A DNA stretch of 64,000 nucleotides from Alphaproteobacteria bacterium (GTDB taxonomy: Bacteria > Pseudomonadota > Alphaproteobacteria > UBA828). This document shows, in pieces, positions 5,121 to 43,295 of the stretch. Location: positions 192,001 to 256,000 of the forward strand of contig CBDCQT010000011.1 of assembly GCA_965220745.1 (NCBI GenBank), given 5' to 3'. Each line of letters begins with the position of its first letter. Position 1 is the first letter of the stretch. The notes below the pieces were generated by a model that saw only the letters and a program-made list of their open reading frames with translations, did no database searches and was not told where the DNA came from. A program made the position numbers and the translations under genes.

Positions 5121-5841
5121 TCCAGGCGCCGTCCGGGAACGGGCGGCGATCCTCAGGCGTGAGACGAAGGTTCTGATCTTCGACCTCTACGGCACGGTCG
5201 TCGACATGCAGGCGGGGCTGACCGAGGCCGCAACCCCCTACCTCAAGGAGAAGGGCTGGGACGGCGCGCCGCACCGCTTCGTCACCTGGTGGCGACGCAC
5301 CCATTTCGAGAATTCGATGATCGACTCTCTCTGCGATCGGGGCCACACCTCCTATCGCGAGATCAGCCACCGCGCGCTCTCATACGTGATGGATCGCTGT
5401 GGCTTTCCCTACACGCAGGAGGAGGTTGTCCAACTGGTGAGCCAGATCGAGACGCTCAAGCCCTTTCCCGAAGTGCCGGCCGCGCTGGAGAGGCTCAGGG
5501 CAGCCGGCTACATGCTCGCCATCCTTTCCAACGGCGATCGGGACATGCTGAAGGCCGCGATGTCGCACGTCGGCATCCCGTTTGACCACGTGATCTCGGT
5601 GCAGGAGGCAGGCGCCTTCAAGCCCCATTGGCGGACCTACGCCAAGGCCGCGGAGATCATGGGCGCCGACCGCACGGCCTGCGCGCTCGTCGCCAACCAC
5701 GCCTTCGATTGCATCGGCGCCAAGGCCTACGGCATGCGCACGGTCTTCATCGACCGTCGCAGCCGGCCCTTCGGCGAGACCCCGCACAGCCCTGACCTCA
5801 TCGTCGAGAACGTCACGGCCCTCGCGGCGGCGCTCGCCTGA
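5110..5841 (+). CDS. Haloacid dehalogenase, type II (HAD)
   Basis: FDLYGTVVD, ILSNG, FKPH and ANHAFDCIGA motifs. Overlaps the previous gene. Confidence 0.88.
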   Translation: MSTDPGAVRERAAILRRETKVLIFDLYGTVVDMQAGLTEAATPYLKEKGWDGAPHRFVTWWRRTHFENSMIDSLCDRGHTSYREISHRALSYVMDRCGFPYTQEEVVQLVSQIETLKPFPEVPAALERLRAAGYMLAILSNGDRDMLKAAMSHVGIPFDHVISVQEAGAFKPHWRTYAKAAEIMGADRTACALVANHAFDCIGAKAYGMRTVFIDRRSRPFGETPHSPDLIVENVTALAAALA

Positions 5842-5867
5842 CGCGTCGGACCCGAAGCGGCGGCGGA

Positions 5868-7478
5868 ATGCAGGCGGACTACATCGTCATCGGCTCGGGC
5901 TCTAGCGGAGCGGCGGTTGCAGCCCGCCTCGCGGAGGACCCGCGCAACCGCGTGCTACTCCTAGAAGCAGGGCCGAAGGACACCAACCCGTTCATCCACA
6001 TACCCGCCGGCTTCACCCGCCTGCTTACCCACCCGACGCTCAACTGGCGGCGGCAGTCCGAGCCGGTGCCCGGCCTCGGCGGCCGTCGTATGCCCTTCCC
6101 CTCTGGCAAGGTGCTCGGCGGCTCCAGCGCGATCAACGGCATGCTCTACATCCGCGGCCAGGCCGAGGATTATGACGCCTGGCGCGACGCCGGCAACGCA
6201 GGCTGGGGCTGGGAGGATGTGCTGCCCTACTTCCGCAAGGCCGAAGACCAGCAGCACGGGGAGAGCGAGAGCCACGGTGTCGGCGGCCCCATCGGGGTGA
6301 GCGACACGCAGCCGAGCAGTCCAGCCTCCCGGCTCTTTCTCGACGCCGCGGTGCGGAGCGGCATTCCACGCCTCGACGACCTCAACACCGGCGATCAGCA
6401 CGGCGTCGCGCTGGTCCAAGGCACGATCAGGAACGGCCGTCGCATGACCACCGCCGTGGGCTACCTGCGGCCGGCTGCTGCGCGCGAGAACCTGCGCGTC
6501 GTGACCGAGGCGCTGGTGGACCGCATCGTCGTCGAAGACGGCATCGCCACCGGCATCATTTATACCGACAAGTCTGGCGCCACCGTCACCGCGCGCGCGG
6601 AGCGCGAGGTCGTGCTCAGTGCAGGCGCCGTGGCCTCGCCCCAGATCCTGCTGCAATCGGGGATCGGCGATGCGGACCAGCTCAAGGCGCTCGGCATCGC
6701 GCCGGTCCACCACCTGCCGGGTGTGGGCGAGAATCTCCACGACCACCTGTTCGTCTTCGTGCAACCCCGGTTGAAGAAGGGGGTGCCGACCCTCAACCGG
6801 CTACTGCGCAGCCGCCCGCGGCTCGCGGCAGAGGTGCTGCGTTACGGCCTCTTTCGTACCGGCGCACTGTCGCTCACCTCTTGCGAGGTCTGCGGCTTTC
6901 TCGATTCCACGGAACGCGGCGGCCGGCCGGATATCGAGATCACCTTCCGCCCGCTCAGCTTCGACCTGTTGCCGGACGGCGGGTGGCGTCCGCACCCCTA
7001 CCCTGGCGGCACGAGCTCGGTCTGTGCCACCCGGCCCAAGAGCCGTGGCCGGGTGACGCTGGTGCAGGACGGCAACGGCGCGCGCCGGGTGACGATCCAG
7101 CCCAACTACCTCGCGCACGATGAGGACGTGATGAGCCTCGTGCGCGGCCTGCGCATCCTACGGCGCATCCTGGGGACCGAGCCTATCGCCTCTTGCGTCG
7201 TCTCCGAGCAGCGGCCGGGCCCGGATGTCGAGAGCGACGAGGCGCTGAGCCAATACGTGCGCGAAACAGCGAGCACGGTCTATCACCCGGTCGGCACCTG
7301 CAAGATGGGCAGCGATGGAATGAGCGTCGTCGACGAGCGCCTTCGGGTCCACGGCATCGCGGGTCTACGTGTTGCCGACGCCTCGATCATGCCAGCTATC
7401 CCTTCCGGCAACACCAACGCGCCCACCATCATGATCGGCGAGAAGGCGGCCGACATGATCCGCCGCTACCACAATTAG
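5868..7478 (+). CDS. GMC family oxidoreductase (choline dehydrogenase-like)
   Basis: GSGSSG FAD motif, GKVLGGSSAING, GVGENLHDH, YHPVGTCKMG and GNTNAPTIMIGEK. Confidence 0.92.
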   Translation: MQADYIVIGSGSSGAAVAARLAEDPRNRVLLLEAGPKDTNPFIHIPAGFTRLLTHPTLNWRRQSEPVPGLGGRRMPFPSGKVLGGSSAINGMLYIRGQAEDYDAWRDAGNAGWGWEDVLPYFRKAEDQQHGESESHGVGGPIGVSDTQPSSPASRLFLDAAVRSGIPRLDDLNTGDQHGVALVQGTIRNGRRMTTAVGYLRPAAARENLRVVTEALVDRIVVEDGIATGIIYTDKSGATVTARAEREVVLSAGAVASPQILLQSGIGDADQLKALGIAPVHHLPGVGENLHDHLFVFVQPRLKKGVPTLNRLLRSRPRLAAEVLRYGLFRTGALSLTSCEVCGFLDSTERGGRPDIEITFRPLSFDLLPDGGWRPHPYPGGTSSVCATRPKSRGRVTLVQDGNGARRVTIQPNYLAHDEDVMSLVRGLRILRRILGTEPIASCVVSEQRPGPDVESDEALSQYVRETASTVYHPVGTCKMGSDGMSVVDERLRVHGIAGLRVADASIMPAIPSGNTNAPTIMIGEKAADMIRRYHN

Positions 7479-37013: not shown

Positions 37014-37538
37014 CTACGCGTCGTAGGCGACGAGGGAGGTGATCGGCAGGTCGAGGCGTTGACGCCCGCCGAGGAAGCTCAGCTCGATGATGAAGGCCGC
37101 CGCCACCACCTCGGCACCCACTTGGCGCAGCAGCGCATGCGACGCGGCCGCCGTGCCCCCGGTCGCAAGCAGGTCGTCGACCAGAACGACCCGCTGACCC
37201 GGCGCGACGGCGTCTGCCTGCACCTCGACCTGATCGGTGCCGTACTCGAGCGCGTATTCATACGCCACGGTCACGCCCGGCAGCTTGCCCTTCTTGCGTA
37301 CCATGATGAAGCCGCAGCCGAGTGCGTGCGCCACCGGCGCCGCGACCAGAAAACCGCGGGATTCGATGCCTGCGAGGAGATCGGGCTTGTGACTGCCGAC
37401 CACATCGACGAGACGCTGCACCGTCTCGCCCCAGGCCCGCGCGTGGGCGAGCAGGGTCGAGATGTCGTAAAAGAGGATGCCTGGCTTGGGAAAGTCAGGA
37501 ATTTCGCGGATATGGTCGCGCAGGTCGAACGCGGACAT
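37014..37538 (-). CDS. apt: Adenine phosphoribosyltransferase
   Basis: [43 protein letters not shown]. Confidence 0.95.
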
Positions 37539-37579
37539 GGCTGCCCCCAATCAGCGCAAGAGGGCTTTGTCCTCCGCGA

Positions 37580-37969
37580 TCACTCGGCGCCGGTGGCTTC
37601 CTTGAGATAGGCGATCAGGTTGTCGCGGTCCTTTTCCTTCCTGACCCCCTTAAACGCCATCTTGTTCTTCGGAATGTAACCCTTGGGATCAGCAATATAG
37701 GCTCTGATCGTCTCCTCGTCCCAGACGATTGCCGCGTCCTTCATTGCGTCCGAGTACTTCTTGAAGCCTTCGGCCGTGCCCGAGGTGCGGCCGAAGACGC
37801 CGTGGAGGTTCGGGCCAACCTTGTGCTTCCCGCCTTCCTTGACGGTGTGGCACACCTTGCACTTCTTGAAGACCTTCTTGCCCTTCTTAACATCGGCGGC
37901 AATGGCGGAGGCGCTTGCCGCCATCATGAAGGTGGCGAGGCCAACGGCGAGGACGTGTCGTGCGCGCAC
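37580..37969 (-). CDS. Class I cytochrome c (c2-like), exported
   Basis: Signal peptide, [22 protein letters not shown] (Met ligand). GTG 37969 follows AAGGAG. Confidence 0.93.
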
Positions 37970-38101
37970 GGGTATCTCCTTAGGTCTGGTCCCGATCATG
38001 CGGTAAACGCGCGAACATAAGCCGGGTCCGCACCCGCGATCAAGCAGGCCATGCAGCCGGTGGCGCGCTGTTCCGGGGAGTAGCGCGCCACCAGCATGTG
38101 G

Positions 38102-39337
38102 CTACTGGACCCGATACTCCTCGTCGAGGAAGAAGCGGCTGTCATAGTCCTCGACGCCAAGGTGGCACTCCGCGCAGAAGACGACGTTCTTGTTGCCCTT
38201 GCCGCCGGTCGTGCCGATGGTCTTGCCGTTCGGCATGATCAGCGTGTAGCGCCAGTCGCCGGTATCAGCGTTGAAGCCGGCTTCCATCTTCTCCATCAGG
38301 AAGAGCGGCCCGGCGCCGATCTTGCCGTTGGGTTTGGCAGTGAAGCTGTCCTTGGCCAACACGGTTCCGACAGGCGCAGGCCCCGCCTCTTCGAAGAGGC
38401 TGTAATTGTCGGCGCCGATGTCGTTGGCGTAGTTGTTGACGTAGCGCGCGCCGTGGGTGTCGGAGACGTAGGGCTGGGCCGCGACGTTCCGCCAATTCTG
38501 GTAGGACGCCGCCCACTGATTGCCCGACTTGGCGTAGCCCTCGGCCATCACCGCACTGATGCAGGCGTAGGCGTCTCGGGCCTCGTCTGCGGTCAACTCC
38601 ACCTCCTCGCCGGCCGCGCAGGGATTGCACGGACCACATGGATTGCACGGGTTACAGGGGCTGCACGGGTTCGCCGCTGCACATGGGTTGCAAGGACCGC
38701 ACGGGTTGCACGGTGCGCAGGCAGCGGCGCATGGATTGCACGGCTCGCACGGGCTGCTTGGACCGCATGGGTTGCAGGCTGCAGCACAGGGATTGCACGG
38801 ATTACAGGGAGCGCACGGTCCGCAAGGGCTACAAGCACTCGCGCAGGGATTGCATGGACCGCAAGGAGCACATGGCCCGCAGGGGCTGCTAGCGGCAGCG
38901 AGGCGCGGCACCACGCAGTCAGCACTGATCGCAGCGCCCGCCGCGCACGGGTTGCAGGCGCCGCACGGCCCGCAGGCTCCGGCGCAGGGATTGCAAGGGT
39001 TGCATGGTCCGCAAGGGCTGCAGGCGCCCGCACAGGGGTTGCAAGGATTACACGGCCCGCACGGTCCACACGCAGACGCGCAGGGATTGCACGGTTCGCA
39101 CGGACTGCATGGTCCACAAGGTCCGCATACCGCCGCGCACGGGTTACACGGACTGCATGGTCCGCACGGATTGCAGGAGGCGAAGAGAAGTACGCCCGGG
39201 TCCTGATGCTGCGGGGTCGCCCCCGGACTCTCGCCGGAGGATGTACCGGCCGTGGCGTGGCCGCCACTGGTGGCGACCGCGAGCCCGATGACCACGGGGA
39301 CCACCGTTCCGGCGAGCAGGGTGTTCGAGCGTGGCAT
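38102..39337 (-). CDS. Exported protein: long Cys-x-x (CNP/CGP/CSP) repeat region fused to a cytochrome P460 / c'-beta-like domain
   Basis: Signal-like N-terminus and about 53 Cys in the repeats. C-terminal domain YQNW...NNYAN...[11 protein letters not shown]...LMEK...GDWRY...CAECH near the C-terminus. GGGAGG RBS. Confidence 0.82.
38618..39175 (-). repeat. Coding 9-bp-period repeats (Cys-Xaa-Pro)
   Basis: Recurring gcacgggtt/gcacggatt/gcaagggtt units with synonymous variation on the + strand. Confidence 0.9.
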
Positions 39338-39469
39338 GTCGGGCCTCCCTTGATGGCGTGATGACGGCGCTCTGAGCGAATTGTCGGCGAGCGCATGGTG
39401 CGGGGCAAACCCCTTCGACTCAAATTTTTGTGATTCCCGTGCCGGGTGAGCGGCAGCTAGGCTGCTGCA

Positions 39470-40345
39470 ATGGTTTTCTCTCGCGGACTCCTTGCGGTCT
39501 GTCTCGCGACCTGTGGCCTGGTCCTCGGGGGCGCTTCATATGCTGGTTCGGTGCCAGTTCCAGTCCTGGCGGAGGTCTCGGCCGGCCCCTTCATCGCGGG
39601 CTCCGACGCGACCGAGCGGGAATACGCCTACCAGCTCGACGAGGCAGCCTACGGCCACTCCCGAACGCGGGAACGCGGCTGGTACGATCGCGAGCGCCCG
39701 CGCGGAACCAAGTCACTGGACAGCTTTTTCATCACGCGCACGCTGATCACCAATGCCCAGTACGCGGCTTTCGTGGATGCCACGGGCCACCGCGTGCCCG
39801 ATGTCGATCCCGAGACCTGGCGCGGCTATCGGCTGATCCACCCCTACGAGCGCACCCGCCGCCACGCGTGGACGGAGGGAGTTCCGCCGCCTGGGCGCGA
39901 AAACCATCCCGTGGTCATGGTCTCGCACGACGACGCCAATGCCTACGCGGCCTGGCTCTCGGCCGAGACCGGGCGCACCTGGCGGCTCCCCACCGAGCTC
40001 GAATGGGAGAAGGCCGCACGCGGCACCGACGGCCGCATCTTCCCCTGGGGCGACACGTACGACCCGGCGCTGCTCAACAGCCACGATTCCGGCCCCTTCG
40101 ACACGCTTCCGGTCGGCAGCTTTCCCGCCGGTGCAAGCCCTTACGGCCTGCTGGATCCGGCAGGCATGGCCTTCGAGTGGACAGCCTCGCCCGGTAATCC
40201 GGGGCGCTTTCTGGTCAAGGGCGGATCATGGGACGACAGCGGCTGCGGCATCTGCCGCCCTGCGGCGCGGCACGGCCGGCCGGCGGACATCAAGCACATC
40301 CTCGTCGGCTTCCGCCTCGTCGTCGATCCGGGCGCGGGGGGTTAG
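39470..40345 (+). CDS. Exported SUMF1/FGE-sulfatase-fold protein
   Basis: Signal peptide, [49 protein letters not shown]. Confidence 0.9.
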
Positions 40346-40427
40346 CCTCCTCGGTCTGGCAAGAGCAAGCCCGCGGCACTATCTTTTCCTGGCGGCACGG
40401 CCAGCGAACGGGCGACAGAGCGGCAGA

Positions 40428-41189
40428 ATGGCCCAGGCTTCAGCGGCGAAGAACGAGCGGCAGGAGGAGACTCGCCACCTCGACATGGCGACGCAGCCGG
40501 TGAAGCGGCTGCGCATGATGCTCGCCGCCGGCGAGGAGGTGCAGGAGGTCGAGCGGGTGCTCGGCAGGACCGGCGATAATGTGGTGAGCGAGCTACTGCG
40601 CGGGCGCGGGACGTTCTACGAGTGGGACCATTACCCGAAAGGGGACGTCTTCGACGGTCAGAGCCACTCCCAGTATTTCTACCACGCCCATCCCGGCGGC
40701 TTCCGGGACACGGAGCACGGGCATTTCCACACCTTCGTGCGCGCCAAGGGGATGCCGCGCGGCATGAAGCCCATGCGCCGCAAGAAGCGCGACAAGTGGC
40801 CCATGGGTGACAAAGCGCTCACCCACGTCATCGCCATCTCGATGGGGTCGAAGGGTCAGCCTCTCAGGCTTTTCACCACCAACCGCTGGGTCACCGGCGA
40901 GACCTGGTATCGCGCGGATGACGTGGCAAAGGTGATCGGCCGCTTTGTCATCGACCACGCCCGCCCGTCATGGCCGACCAACCGCTGGGTCGGCGCCATG
41001 GTCCGCCTCTTCTGGCCGCAGATCATCCTGCTAGTCAAGGCGCGTGATCAGGTGATCGAGAACTGGGCTGCCCAGAATCCGAAGCAGGATACCCTCGAAG
41101 ATCGCCGCCTCGAGGTCGTCTCGCAGGCCGACGTGGATATCGAGGCCCAGATCGCCGCAGTCAAGGCGGCCCTCGCCGAGAGAATCTGA
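40428..41189 (+). CDS. His-rich conserved hypothetical protein (possibly DUF6969 family)
   Basis: HYPKGDV, QYFYHAH, EHGHFHTF, THVIAI and FTTNRWVTGETWY motifs. Start uncertain (40428 or 40485). Confidence 0.72.
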   Translation: MAQASAAKNERQEETRHLDMATQPVKRLRMMLAAGEEVQEVERVLGRTGDNVVSELLRGRGTFYEWDHYPKGDVFDGQSHSQYFYHAHPGGFRDTEHGHFHTFVRAKGMPRGMKPMRRKKRDKWPMGDKALTHVIAISMGSKGQPLRLFTTNRWVTGETWYRADDVAKVIGRFVIDHARPSWPTNRWVGAMVRLFWPQIILLVKARDQVIENWAAQNPKQDTLEDRRLEVVSQADVDIEAQIAAVKAALAERI

Positions 41190-41231
41190 GGCGCAGCCGG
41201 CCCGCCGCTGTCACGGCTCCCGTACCGCAAT

Positions 41232-41259
41232 GAAGAACGCCGCCTCTCCCGAGGCGGCG
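41232..41259 (-). terminator. Intrinsic terminator of the small Cys-repeat gene
   Basis: 9-bp stem CGCCGCCTC/GAGGCGGCG with a 4-nt loop, followed by TTCTTC on the minus strand. Confidence 0.65.
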
Positions 41260-41290
41260 CCCTTGGATACCGTTGTCGTTACTCTTGAGC

Positions 41291-41683
41291 TTACTCGGCA
41301 GCACACGGATCGCACGGGTTGCAGGCCGCGCACGGGTCGCACGGATTGCAAGCCTCGCAAGGATTGCAGGCATCCGCGACGATGATGCGCTCGTCCAAGG
41401 AAGATTCGCACGGATTGCAACCGCCGCATGGGTTGCAAGCCTCGCACGGATTGCAGGCCTCGCAAGGGTTGCAGGCATCCGCGACGACGACGCCCTCGTC
41501 CAGGGAAGATTCGCATGGGTTGCAAGCCTCGCACGGGTTACAGGCCCCGCACGGGTTGCACGGATCCTCGTGCGAGTCCGCGACGACGGTCGGCTGCTCC
41601 CCTGCGGACACGGCCGACGGCGCAAGGGCGGCGCCGGCCGCCATGGTAACGATGCTCACGGCGACCACTGTTTCCTTGATCAT
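41291..41683 (-). CDS. Small secreted Cys-rich repeat protein (130 aa, 22 Cys, three CNPC cassettes)
   Basis: C-terminal part of track ORF 41291..42748. AGGAGGAG RBS before ATG 41683, signal peptide [27 protein letters not shown], downstream terminator. Confidence 0.85.
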
Positions 41684-41854
41684 TTTCGTAGTCTCCTCCT
41701 CGCAGACGCGAAATTTGATTGGTTTGAATTGGGGCTTCGCGCCGCCTCGGCGGGTTGTCGAACCATACGAAGCCCACGCCATTGTGGTGTATATCGGCGG
41801 CGAGCAAAAGTGCTTTCGTTTCGATGACGGGAATGTGAGCGACGGGGACGGCCG

Positions 41855-42631
41855 ATGCCGGTCGCGAGCAGCGAAGATTACGCGAGGCTGGCTGCCACCG
41901 CGCGGCAATTGGCGCTGGAGGCCGGGCGGACGATCATGGTCTTCTACCGCAAAGGCACGCTGGTCGAGACCAAGGCCGATTCCACACCCGTGACCGAGGC
42001 GGACCGCGCCGCAGACGGTCTCATCGTCACGGGCTTGCAGGCCGCGACCCCCGACATCCATGTGATTTCCGAGGAGAGCACAAGCGCAGGCACGCCACCC
42101 GCCAGCGGGCGCTTCTGGCTCGTGGATCCACTGGACGGCACCCGAGAGTTCATCGCACGCACCGGCGAGTTCACGGTCAATATCGCCTTGATCGAGGATG
42201 GCCGTCCGGTGCTCGGCGTGCTGCACGCCCCGGTCCAGGGCGAGACCTATGTCGCCGACGGACTGGGGCAGGCGGTGCGTATCGTGGGCGACGGTCGGCC
42301 GCAGGCGATCCGGGCGCGTCCGGTGCCTGCCAGAGGCCCTGCGGTCATCGCCAGCCGCCTGCACCGTGACGCCGAGACCGATGCATACATCGCGGGCCTC
42401 GGGCCTGCGCAGACTGTGAGCGCGGGGAGCGCCCTCAAGTTCGGCCTTCTGGCGCGGGGTGAAGCCGACATATACCCCCGCTTCGGCCGCACCATGGAGT
42501 GGGACACCGCCGCCGGCCACGCAATCCTCTCCGCCGCAGGCGGCCATGTCCGCGACCTGAACGGTCGCGAGCTGAGCTATGGCAAGGCGGGGTTCGTGAA
42601 TCCGCCCTTCGTTGCCTGCGGCATGGACTAG
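41855..42631 (+). CDS. cysQ: 3'(2'),5'-bisphosphate nucleotidase
   Basis: [52 protein letters not shown]. Confidence 0.92.
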
Positions 42632-42635
42632 GGAC

Positions 42636-43295
42636 GTGTCGCCCGACGCCACAACCGGTCCTCCGTGCCTCGCACCGACCCCCGATGTCATCGCGCAGGC
42701 CGCGCGGGCGATTCGCGACGGCGGGCTCGTCGGGCTGCCCACCGACACGGTCTACGGCCTCGCCGCCGACGCGACCTCCGATGCGGCCGTGGAGGGCGTC
42801 TTTCGCGCCAAGGGCAGGCCGGCCGACAAGCCGCTCATCGCCCTCATCGCCACGATGGCGATGGCGAAGACCTGCGCCGACTTCACCGCGCCGGCCCTGG
42901 CGCTTGCGGAGGAGTTCTGGCCCGGCCCCTTGACCCTGGTGCTGCCGCGTGGCCCAGCCTCGCCCCTCTCGCCGCTGGTTCACCAGCGCGCACCGGGCAT
43001 CTCGCTCCGCATTCCTGGCAACGAGACCGCGCGTGCCGTCGTTGAGGCCGCGGAGCGGCCGTTGACGGCGCCGAGCGCCAATCCCTCGGGCGCACCGAGC
43101 CCGCTCACCGCCGCCGAGGTCGCGGCCGGCCTCGGAACCGCGGTCGCGCTGGTGATCGACGGCGGCCGTGCCGCCGACAGCCTCGGCTCGACGCTACTCG
43201 ACCTCACCGGGGACATCCCGCGTCTGCTCCGCGCAGGCGTCGTGAGTGCCCCGGCAATCGAGAGCGTGATTGGCCCTATCGTTCGCGCGGACTGA
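42636..43295 (+). CDS. tsaC: L-threonylcarbamoyladenylate synthase (TsaC/Sua5 catalytic domain)
   Basis: [28 protein letters not shown]. Confidence 0.88.

Follow-up and report, generated by a model that had tools for sequence, protein, structure and literature searches.

An exported Asn-Pro-Cys repeat protein tied to DUF6969 in Alphaproteobacteria, a candidate periplasmic thiol buffer

Bufferins are Sec-exported cysteine peptides that chelate copper (PMC11626156); a cytoplasmic iron enzyme takes part in making them, and rare fusions join Buf1 to Cytochrom_C and FGE-sulfatase domains (PMC12452194). Here we compare these systems with a locus in the window, by which we mean the whole 64,000-nucleotide stretch analysed (positions 192,001 to 256,000 of contig CBDCQT010000011.1, assembly GCA_965220745.1, an alphaproteobacterium of the UBA828 lineage). 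The locus encodes P0001, an exported Asn-Pro-Cys (NPC) repeat protein of 130 amino acids (aa) at 41291..41683 on the minus strand, which an earlier sequence-only reading had described as a secreted multi-cysteine peptide with the same coordinates and sequence. We found that the peptide family is genomically tied to DUF6969 (PF22308); in this lineage the tie extends to a cytochrome c and to an exported protein of FGE-like type. The reading that we favour, though with somewhat less than even confidence, is that intact P0001, with its many thiols, buffers soft metals in the periplasm, Cu(I) above all.

P0001 is a real gene. Its translation runs without an internal stop from the ATG at 41683 to the stop codon at 41291-41293, and a ribosome-binding site, GAGGAGGAG, lies on the same strand at 41693..41701, 9 nt upstream of the ATG; within it, AGGAGGAG occupies 41693-41700. 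The strong ribosome-binding site named in the sequence-only reading is therefore kept beyond the window, as GAGGAGGA is invariant and the full site nearly invariant in 15 genus copies. That reading had also recognized that the gene is hidden at the end of a spurious open reading frame (ORF) of 485 aa. This ORF starts with GTG, covers 41291-42748 and is a shadow of cysQ, because its remainder lies opposite cysQ, which the other strand encodes at 41855-42631 (TIGR01331, E 7.7e-85). As to its claim that the gene has its own terminator, a consensus terminator scan called none for P0001, but RNA folding revealed a terminator-like hairpin followed by UUCUUCAUU at about 41234..41263 on the minus strand, between the convergent P0001 and DUF6969 genes (13 pairs, G+C-rich, -35.7 kcal/mol, z -3.9, none of 200 shuffles as good). 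A sigma-70 consensus scan for a P0001 promoter returned 0 sites, and an Rfam scan of 41150-41900 gave no match near threshold.

One could argue that P0001 is a GC-rich low-complexity repeat that stays open by accident, given that the genome is G+C-rich, that shadow ORFs abound in it and that P0001 itself lies within a long, spurious ORF. However, all 15 DUF6969-linked genus copies keep an open frame (67-130 aa) with conserved start, ribosome-binding site, signal peptide and stop, homologues occur in several orders, and a terminator hairpin is present. Moreover, the ten CNPC units are spelled by six different DNA 12-mers, synonymous variation which implies that the constraint acts on the protein. 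We give this accidental origin virtually no credence, since the conservation data already refute it. The stretch itself was recovered independently, as a contig of run X1, a run that may be the source sample, spans 40973-42000 with 0 differences. It is present in 20 runs from 12 studies, and where a label is given it names a sponge, coral or marine metagenome. In the sole RNA-library run (X20), a 0.14 share of the words was found. The contigs of this run belong to relatives, the listed pieces being 88 to 98% alike; they cover parts of 39427-41253 and 41616-41958 and leave the repeat core (41275-41576) almost uncovered. Such contigs cannot show transcription, DNA was possibly in the library, and we draw nothing from them.

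The region 5' of the peptide genes is conserved in the genus (41684-41800 in the window, minus strand; also L002-L018 and L093). It comprises an upstream block, GATATACACCACAATG, about 95 nt before the ATG, and then a hairpin, GGGCUUCG...CGAAGCCC. Sister genera carry CACCATTAT at a similar position, and solo paralogues also have a conserved 5' region of the GATATACACCACAATG type. A genome search for further copies of the block returned none beyond two sites with three mismatches, and a compensatory change was seen in only 1 of the 17 predicted pairs of the leader hairpin.

Residues 1-27 of P0001, with one Lys, an 18-residue hydrophobic stretch and then VSA, read as a Sec-type signal peptide that would be cleaved after VSA, and the n-, h- and c-regions with VSA are conserved in 27 aligned family members. 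P0001 as a lipoprotein was ruled out, as D-P precedes the first Cys. As a separate observation on the family, in 44 of 116 small members the first array Cys is immediately preceded by a tripeptide that resembles a lipobox ([LVIFM][ASTVI][GAS]), about 10 residues past the apparent signal-peptidase I site (e.g., P0013, P0022 and P0033). The mature protein of 103 aa is acidic (11 Glu and 8 Asp, 19 in total), is rich in Cys (22), Pro (14), Ala (14) and Asn (10), and contains neither aromatic residues nor Lys. Its AlphaFold2 (AF2) model, built on a 27-row alignment, is disordered with a predicted local distance difference test (pLDDT) score of 39, and P0001 would thus have no fold of its own. No family was matched in Pfam (E<=0.01) or NCBIfam (E<=1). 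Both this composition and the disordered model fit the earlier description of an exported metallothionein-like protein.

The cysteines fall into three cassettes with 6, 8 and 8 Cys, made of ten CNPC and two CDPC units, and each cassette follows a similar spacer, just as the sequence-only reading had it. The 105-bp (35-aa) duplication it had noticed is present as well: two direct copies of a spacer and Cys-cassette unit lie in tandem at 41304..41513 (41304-41408 and 41409-41513), 81% identical, with 3 synonymous and 10 non-synonymous differences in 34 codons and with all Cys retained. Cassette number varies among close relatives from one to three, even between those with 97-98% identical DUF6969. 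A single cassette is the majority form (9 of the 15 DUF6969-linked genus copies), while internal spacers are kept in the other 6, two in the window protein and L004 and one each in L006, L011, L013 and L014. The spacer consensus, [ES]S[LF][DG][ED]x[IVM][IV][VF]A[DE], also occurs in P0003, P0004, P0007 and P0023, whose arrays differ, so that the spacers are conserved in homologues and the refuting condition which the sequence-only reading had set on this point does not hold. Among the 116 small family members examined, a motif-bearing internal spacer was found in 4 (P0002, P0003, P0004 and P0007).

At its hydrophobic end, the spacer repeats the element found after the signal peptide (QPTVVAD), and the three cassettes are preceded by VVAD, VVVADA and IIVADA. 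A φ-x-φ-A motif is found within 12 residues before the first array in 91 of the 116 small members, mostly 1-2 residues ahead of the first Cys, compared to a mean of 3.4 and a maximum of 11 in shuffled segments, a count that is partly circular in that the collecting profile includes those columns. Haem-fused proteins found via synteny also bear it (VLLFAS-C, IIRLAA-C and VQLAA-C). The functional unit thus appears to be the φ-x-φ-A motif plus the array; the window gene has three such units, probably produced by the recent tandem duplication. The sequence-only reading had placed a processing site after the hydrophobic-hydrophobic-Ala. Because the motif is family-wide and present in haem fusions that cannot be cleaved there, it looks like part of the functional unit rather than a cutting site. 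CNPC as an FGE motif (C-x-P-x) was ruled out by K-N-P-C in relatives, and the core unit is therefore N-P-C.

The stop codons of the P0001 and DUF6969 genes face each other across 101 bp. Across 44 genomes of the taxonomic family, one of them the window's own, the profile A1, built from 27 intact members, matched in 35 genomes and DUF6969 in 35, with both in 34 and neither in 8. The exceptions are G006 (78% complete), which has weak repeat matches only, and G018 (67% complete), which has DUF6969 only. The distance from the peptide match to DUF6969 is about 450 bp or less in 30 of the 34 genomes and 3-5.5 kb in 4. Since kin share synteny by descent, the survey was widened to the class. Among 401 class genomes, DUF6969 was present in 91 (a count that includes the unpublished genome G281), NPC-profile matches in 58 and both in 54, the overlap and distances being read by comparing the two match tables. 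An NPC match occurred in 4 of the 310 genomes without DUF6969; two of these genomes are 67-79% complete, and two of the matches fall short of E 5e-5. Of the 54 double-positive genomes, 36 have an NPC match and DUF6969 on one contig, no more than 10 kb apart.

For 20 of the 91 genomes with DUF6969, the locus was examined with about 9 kb on each side, taking the best-scoring places and leaving out very short contigs. A Cys-repeat ORF was nearby in 13 (in two with CGAC, not NPC), an FGE-like gene in 7, a P460-like gene in 8 and a cytochrome c homologue in 8, whereas 6 have DUF6969 without a Cys-repeat ORF, an FGE-like or a P460-like gene. Gene orientation varies by lineage (convergent, divergent or tandem), and adjacency to DUF6969 persists. 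cysQ was near DUF6969 in 2 of the 20 loci, both from the window's taxonomic family; cysQ and a Sua5-like gene adjoin only within that family and therefore carry no functional message. Against strict coupling, 16 of 31 named peptide loci lack DUF6969 within 6 kb, namely 4 solo paralogues, whose genome also has a linked copy, and 12 loci of Kiloniellales type. P0001 itself combines an export signal and a short-period Cys repeat with adjacency to a PF22308 gene that persists across lineages, and these features place it in an informal class of DUF6969-linked exported poly-Cys repeat proteins, on which no publication was found.

The DUF6969 protein of the window (P0046, 253 aa; 40428..41189, plus strand; PF22308, E 3.3e-84) has no signal peptide. 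It contains an invariant His/Asp/Glu cluster (H68, D73, D76, H80, H86, H88, E96, H99, H101 and H133), and in an alignment of 26 sequences, 46-93% identical to the window protein, 45 columns are invariant, including 7 His. The protein looks like a cytoplasmic metalloenzyme. Its AF2 model (pLDDT 85, predicted TM-score 0.87) gave no Foldseek match in the PDB at E<=0.001, which does not show that the fold is new; a wide VIA fold search reached a best Z of 7.2, for a 57-residue L29-like helical hairpin only. Its sequence found no match in the PDB, and an ESM Atlas search returned only 'hypothetical protein' clusters (0.80-0.82). Complex predictions of DUF6969 with peptide residues 1-62 gave run scores of 0.78, 0.02 and 0.00 and count neither for nor against binding.

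The sequence-only reading had noted that no MNIO gene is adjacent and that any modifier would be of a new type or encoded elsewhere. The absence extends further than the neighbourhood, as neither PF05114 (MNIO/DUF692) nor PF09836 (DUF2063) had a match in the genome, which is 99.96% complete (the control matched in Caulobacter), and the conserved neighbour DUF6969 offers itself as a candidate modifier.

A word-indexed search gave 41 homologues of 71-161 aa (E<=1e-3) among 843 candidates, with nearly invariant signal peptides and very variable arrays. Five of them (P0008, P0017, P0019, P0020 and P0028) leave the frame inside the repeat and continue Arg/Leu-rich; they are probably pseudogenes or the result of faulty assembly or calling of the repeat. 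The A1 profile matched 236 clusters at E<=1e-3, of which 40 at <=1e-10, among 1.84 billion representatives. In the genome collection, 31 loci encode relatives, all from uncultured Alphaproteobacteria (Rhodospirillales, Kiloniellales, Rhodovibrionaceae and others). Instead of being acidic, many relatives are rich in Lys, with units that hold a single Cys (NPCAAK).

Several members deserve separate mention. The window's own genome holds a second, solo copy on another contig (G000:C3:187040-187261, plus strand; L002 1500-1725), which encodes 74 aa with one cassette ending in CCADPCNPCAC and has neither DUF6969 nor an FGE-like gene within 1.5 kb. The Kiloniellales-type contigs from metagenome-assembled genomes (L098-L113) encode the same signal peptide and Lys-rich arrays, have no DUF6969 within 6 kb and lie downstream of rnpA-yidD-yidC; among the 12 loci of this type, a pyridine-nucleotide disulfide oxidoreductase lies upstream of the peptide in 8 and a histidine kinase downstream of it in 10. 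On Sinorhizobium meliloti pSymB (CP140948.1), an unannotated, exported-looking ORF with APCAAG-type Cys repeats and a Pro-rich tail lies at L118 about 5640-5984 (plus strand), in the order sulfurtransferase, YeeE, unannotated PCAA-repeat ORF, DUF6969. A rhodanese and a YeeE-like ORF occur in two other loci.

The sequence-only reading had left the plus-strand neighbours unidentified and had missed a gene on the minus strand. The ORF at 39470..40345 (plus strand) encodes an exported FGE-sulfatase-like protein of 291 aa (P0045; PF03781, E 1.1e-43), the N-terminus of which reads as a likely signal peptide. It forms a tight orthologous group (62-82% identity), with a C-terminal Cys pair in C-x-x-C spacing (C259 in 16 of 16 and C262 in 15 of 16 sequences) in a nearly invariant segment. 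FGEs hold copper by a Cys pair, and FGE is reportedly a copper enzyme that oxidizes peptidyl-Cys. The pair of P0045 lies in the segment where FGEs bind copper, and the residues may be equivalent. The best solved relative of P0045 is ToxD (7spq), with FGE, SUMF2, EgtB, OvsA and PvdO weaker.

The missed gene, at 38102..39337 on the minus strand, was located via a peptide-profile match at about 39059-39238 and encodes a Cys-repeat haem protein of 411 aa (P0043; PF16694, E 2.7e-8). P0043 begins with a signal or anchor peptide, continues with NPC/GPC/SPC repeats (CNPC/CGPC/CSPC) over about 200 aa and has a C-terminal cytochrome P460-like domain with CAECH, which scored 34.7 bits against a cut-off of 27 and matched PDB 7s5o (E 4.6e-4). 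The plus-strand ORF over the same DNA matched no family and reads as a shadow. Of the 15 named loci in which DUF6969 is also present, 14 show the architecture of P0043, and P0001 is the free-standing form of the Cys array that is also fused to a haem domain in the same locus. The P460-fused repeat proteins all split their Cys array by a linker, x-C-[VIFYM]-[VI]-P-[RG]-[LVM], seen in P0043 and in L070, L071, L074, L078, L082 and L083-L106. Two lineages build the P460-fused array from C-G-A-C and not N-P-C (L073 11342-12643, plus strand; L075 6969-8066, minus strand), with Lys in the units of one of them; the partner set thus seems to tolerate different repeat chemistries.

Downstream of P0043, a class I cytochrome c with CKVCH is encoded at 37580..37999 on the minus strand (P0047; PF00034, E 8.9e-12), which matched the cytochrome c-550 model NF043008 at 2.9e-34, below the model's cut-off. 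A phosphoribosyltransferase gene follows at 37014-37550 (minus strand); a homologue is near DUF6969 in 8 of the 20 class-level loci, and an adenine phosphoribosyltransferase is annotated in the locus on Azospirillum lipoferum plasmid AZO_p5 (L117 1555-2070). The housekeeping neighbours among the ORFs scanned, which cover 27-54 kb of the window, are cysQ, the Sua5-like gene, aspartokinase, HisRS and RF-1.

Longer family members were surveyed for domain fusions with Pfam, using those of at least 142 aa among the 150 best profile matches (56 proteins). SoxA-TsdA_cyt-c was found in 14, Cytochrome_P460 in 4, LysM in 4, YceI in 2, and YHS, PDZ and a CCP_MauG haem motif alone in 1 each, while 29 had no Pfam family; three further Cornifin matches were dismissed as low-complexity noise. 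The haem-domain fusions imply that the Cys arrays work next to periplasmic c-type haems.

We favour an intact periplasmic buffer because the triad of Cys peptide, cytochrome c and FGE-sulfatase parallels bufferins, with DUF6969 in MNIO's place; the single YHS domain among the longer matches was counted as a copper parallel. According to this working model, the whole protein, once freed of its signal peptide, would remain periplasmic and serve as a multi-thiol buffer of high capacity, which would make it an exported counterpart, metallothionein-like in kind, of the bufferins that buffer copper. Its eleven CxxC pairs would bind thiophilic metal ions, most likely Cu(I), and the recent tandem duplication to three cassettes would raise its capacity. 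DUF6969, cytoplasmic and enzyme-like with its His cluster, might prepare or service the protein before export, and the haem and FGE-like partners might handle redox or copper chemistry at the thiols. Several observations weigh against this model. No copper, zinc or cadmium resistance genes were seen among the ORFs scanned. The SoxA/TsdA fusions point at least equally to sulfur chemistry, which also fits the rhodanese and YeeE genes that adjoin DUF6969 on S. meliloti pSymB. As relatives are Lys-rich with NPCAAK units, CxxC pairs and negative charge are not family-defining. Finally, the tight link to a conserved, enzyme-like DUF6969 may mean that the cysteines are modified and do not remain plain thiols.

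This last point leads to a different proposal, in which P0001 is the precursor of a bufferin-like RiPP (a peptide that ribosomes synthesize and that is modified after its translation) made by a new route. The cysteines would be converted by cytoplasmic DUF6969, by the periplasmic FGE-like oxidase or by the two together to give a modified periplasmic metallophore, and the motif would be the enzyme recognition element, present once per cassette. DUF6969 is single-copy, enzyme-like and very conserved, whereas the partner peptides are hypervariable (NPC, CGAC and PCAA repeats), and the FGE family acts on peptidyl-Cys. The φ-x-φ-A motif, common before the arrays of small members, recurs ahead of each internal P0001 cassette. 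A Sec precursor paired with a cytoplasmic metalloenzyme follows the same logic as bufferins (PMC12452194). On the other hand, DUF6969 has neither a fold match by Foldseek or VIA nor a described chemistry, the motif count is partly circular, the 6 class-level DUF6969 loci without any partner and the 12 Kiloniellales-type peptide loci without DUF6969 do not fit, and the repeat units, C-N-P-C-E/G/D with K-N-P-C in relatives, depart from the FGE consensus C-x-P-x-R. We regard this route as possible but doubtful. The same tentative standing applies to its boldest form, in which DUF6969 would be a new cytoplasmic His-cluster metalloenzyme family that converts Cys of Sec-destined poly-Cys precursors, an MNIO analogue with an unrelated and apparently undescribed fold, and P0001 would be a three-core precursor flagged by φ-x-φ-A and finished by the FGE-like oxidase and haem partners. 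Release of three small Cys peptides by cutting at the spacers, the multi-core layout proposed in the sequence-only reading, is very unlikely. The repeated spacer-plus-core layout is real, and the spacer consensus is kept in homologues whose cassettes differ. But nothing indicates spacer cleavage: no protease or transporter-protease was found among the ORFs scanned, although one may be encoded elsewhere, most relatives are single-cassette, and the same motif precedes arrays fused to haem domains. The duplication is recent, and some of the spacer similarity is therefore due to age, which also speaks against cutting.

The arrays could instead serve as a periplasmic sulfur or redox carrier, taking up sulfane sulfur or thiosulfate or cycling between thiol and disulfide, with the haem partners (P460-like and SoxA/TsdA-like) catalysing oxidative S-S chemistry and passing electrons to cytochrome c. 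The SoxA/TsdA fusions support this idea, as do the cytochrome c gene that follows the NPC-P460 gene, with homologues in the class-level loci, the gene order on pSymB, the rhodanese and YeeE-like ORF in the two other loci, and the resemblance of C-x-P-C to redox-active CxxC motifs. However, SoxY and other known carriers work with a single Cys on a folded protein, the ORFs scanned included no sox, YeeE or rhodanese gene, and the cysQ neighbour is uninformative, being kept only within the taxonomic family. Taken together, we consider such a carrier rather unlikely, and the periplasmic thiol buffer remains the reading that we favour.

Literature searches found no paper on DUF6969 or PF22308, returned only unrelated acronyms for the repeat motifs (CNPCNPC etc.) and found no paper combining 'Cytochrome P460' with 'cysteine-rich' and 'repeat'; the MNIO landscape paper mentions neither NPC nor P460 (PMC12452194). 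The window contributes the three-cassette form with its pre-array motif, the co-located set of FGE-like, P460-like and cytochrome c genes, the genome-wide absence of MNIO and, with DUF6969, a class-wide two-by-two table. Poly-Cys proteins and DUF6969 form a widespread module, to go by the share of sampled class genomes that carry DUF6969 (91 of 401). Exported proteins of which one-fifth to one-third is Cys routinely escape gene callers, lying in a shadow ORF here and in an unannotated ORF in S. meliloti. A buffer for copper or other thiophilic species would represent a second solution beside bufferins, independent of MNIO, and would bear on how Alphaproteobacteria associated with sponges and corals handle metals and sulfur. 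If DUF6969 modifies cysteines, it would be a new enzyme class for peptide natural products.

Among known cysteine-rich metal-binding proteins, bacterial metallothioneins (SmtA/BmtA type and MymT) are, like P0001, small, Cys-rich with CxxC/CxC, aromatic-poor and unfolded without metal; in contrast to P0001, which carries an export signal and has no Pfam match, they are cytoplasmic, with neither a signal peptide nor an Asn-Pro-Cys repeat. The Csp1-type copper storage proteins of methanotrophs are exported and hold many Cu(I) on Cys thiolates, but Csp proteins are folded four-helix bundles, whereas P0001 is a short-period repeat modelled as disordered. In the SoxYZ/SoxXA system, a SoxA-type haem protein acts on a Cys thiol in the periplasm, which recalls the SoxA/TsdA domains fused to NPC arrays; SoxY, however, presents a single carrier Cys on a folded protein, and no sox genes were seen at the window locus. 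Multi-core RiPP precursors such as the cyanobactin precursor PatE share with P0001 tandem cassettes with a conserved flanking element, but they have a leader peptide and dedicated proteases, while the P0001 locus offers a Sec-type signal and no protease among the ORFs scanned.

The partner proteins also have known relatives. P0045 shares with the FGE family the PF03781 fold, and its conserved C-terminal Cys pair may correspond to the copper-binding pair of FGEs; it differs in being exported, in being closest to ToxD and in the C-x-x-C spacing of the pair, and the repeat units lack the Arg of C-x-P-x-R. P0043 falls with cytochrome P460/c'-beta through its PF16694 domain with a C-terminal CXXCH (CAECH). 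The closest parallel remains that of bufferins and oxazolins (BufA1/DUF2282, BufA2 and Buf_EGKCG), which are Sec-exported Cys peptides that stay in the periplasm, as P0001 would. The Cys density of P0001 is far higher, and P0001 matches no Pfam or NCBIfam precursor model, libraries outside which the authors' Buf2 and CxxxxC hidden Markov models lie. With neither MNIO nor DUF2063 in its genome, P0001 is therefore not a bufferin. Bufferins are encoded with a cytoplasmic metalloenzyme (the MNIO BufB, with the DUF2063 protein BufC), in the place of which the partner here is DUF6969, and the domains to which some bufferins are fused, Cytochrom_C and FGE-sulfatase, occur at the window locus as separate genes.

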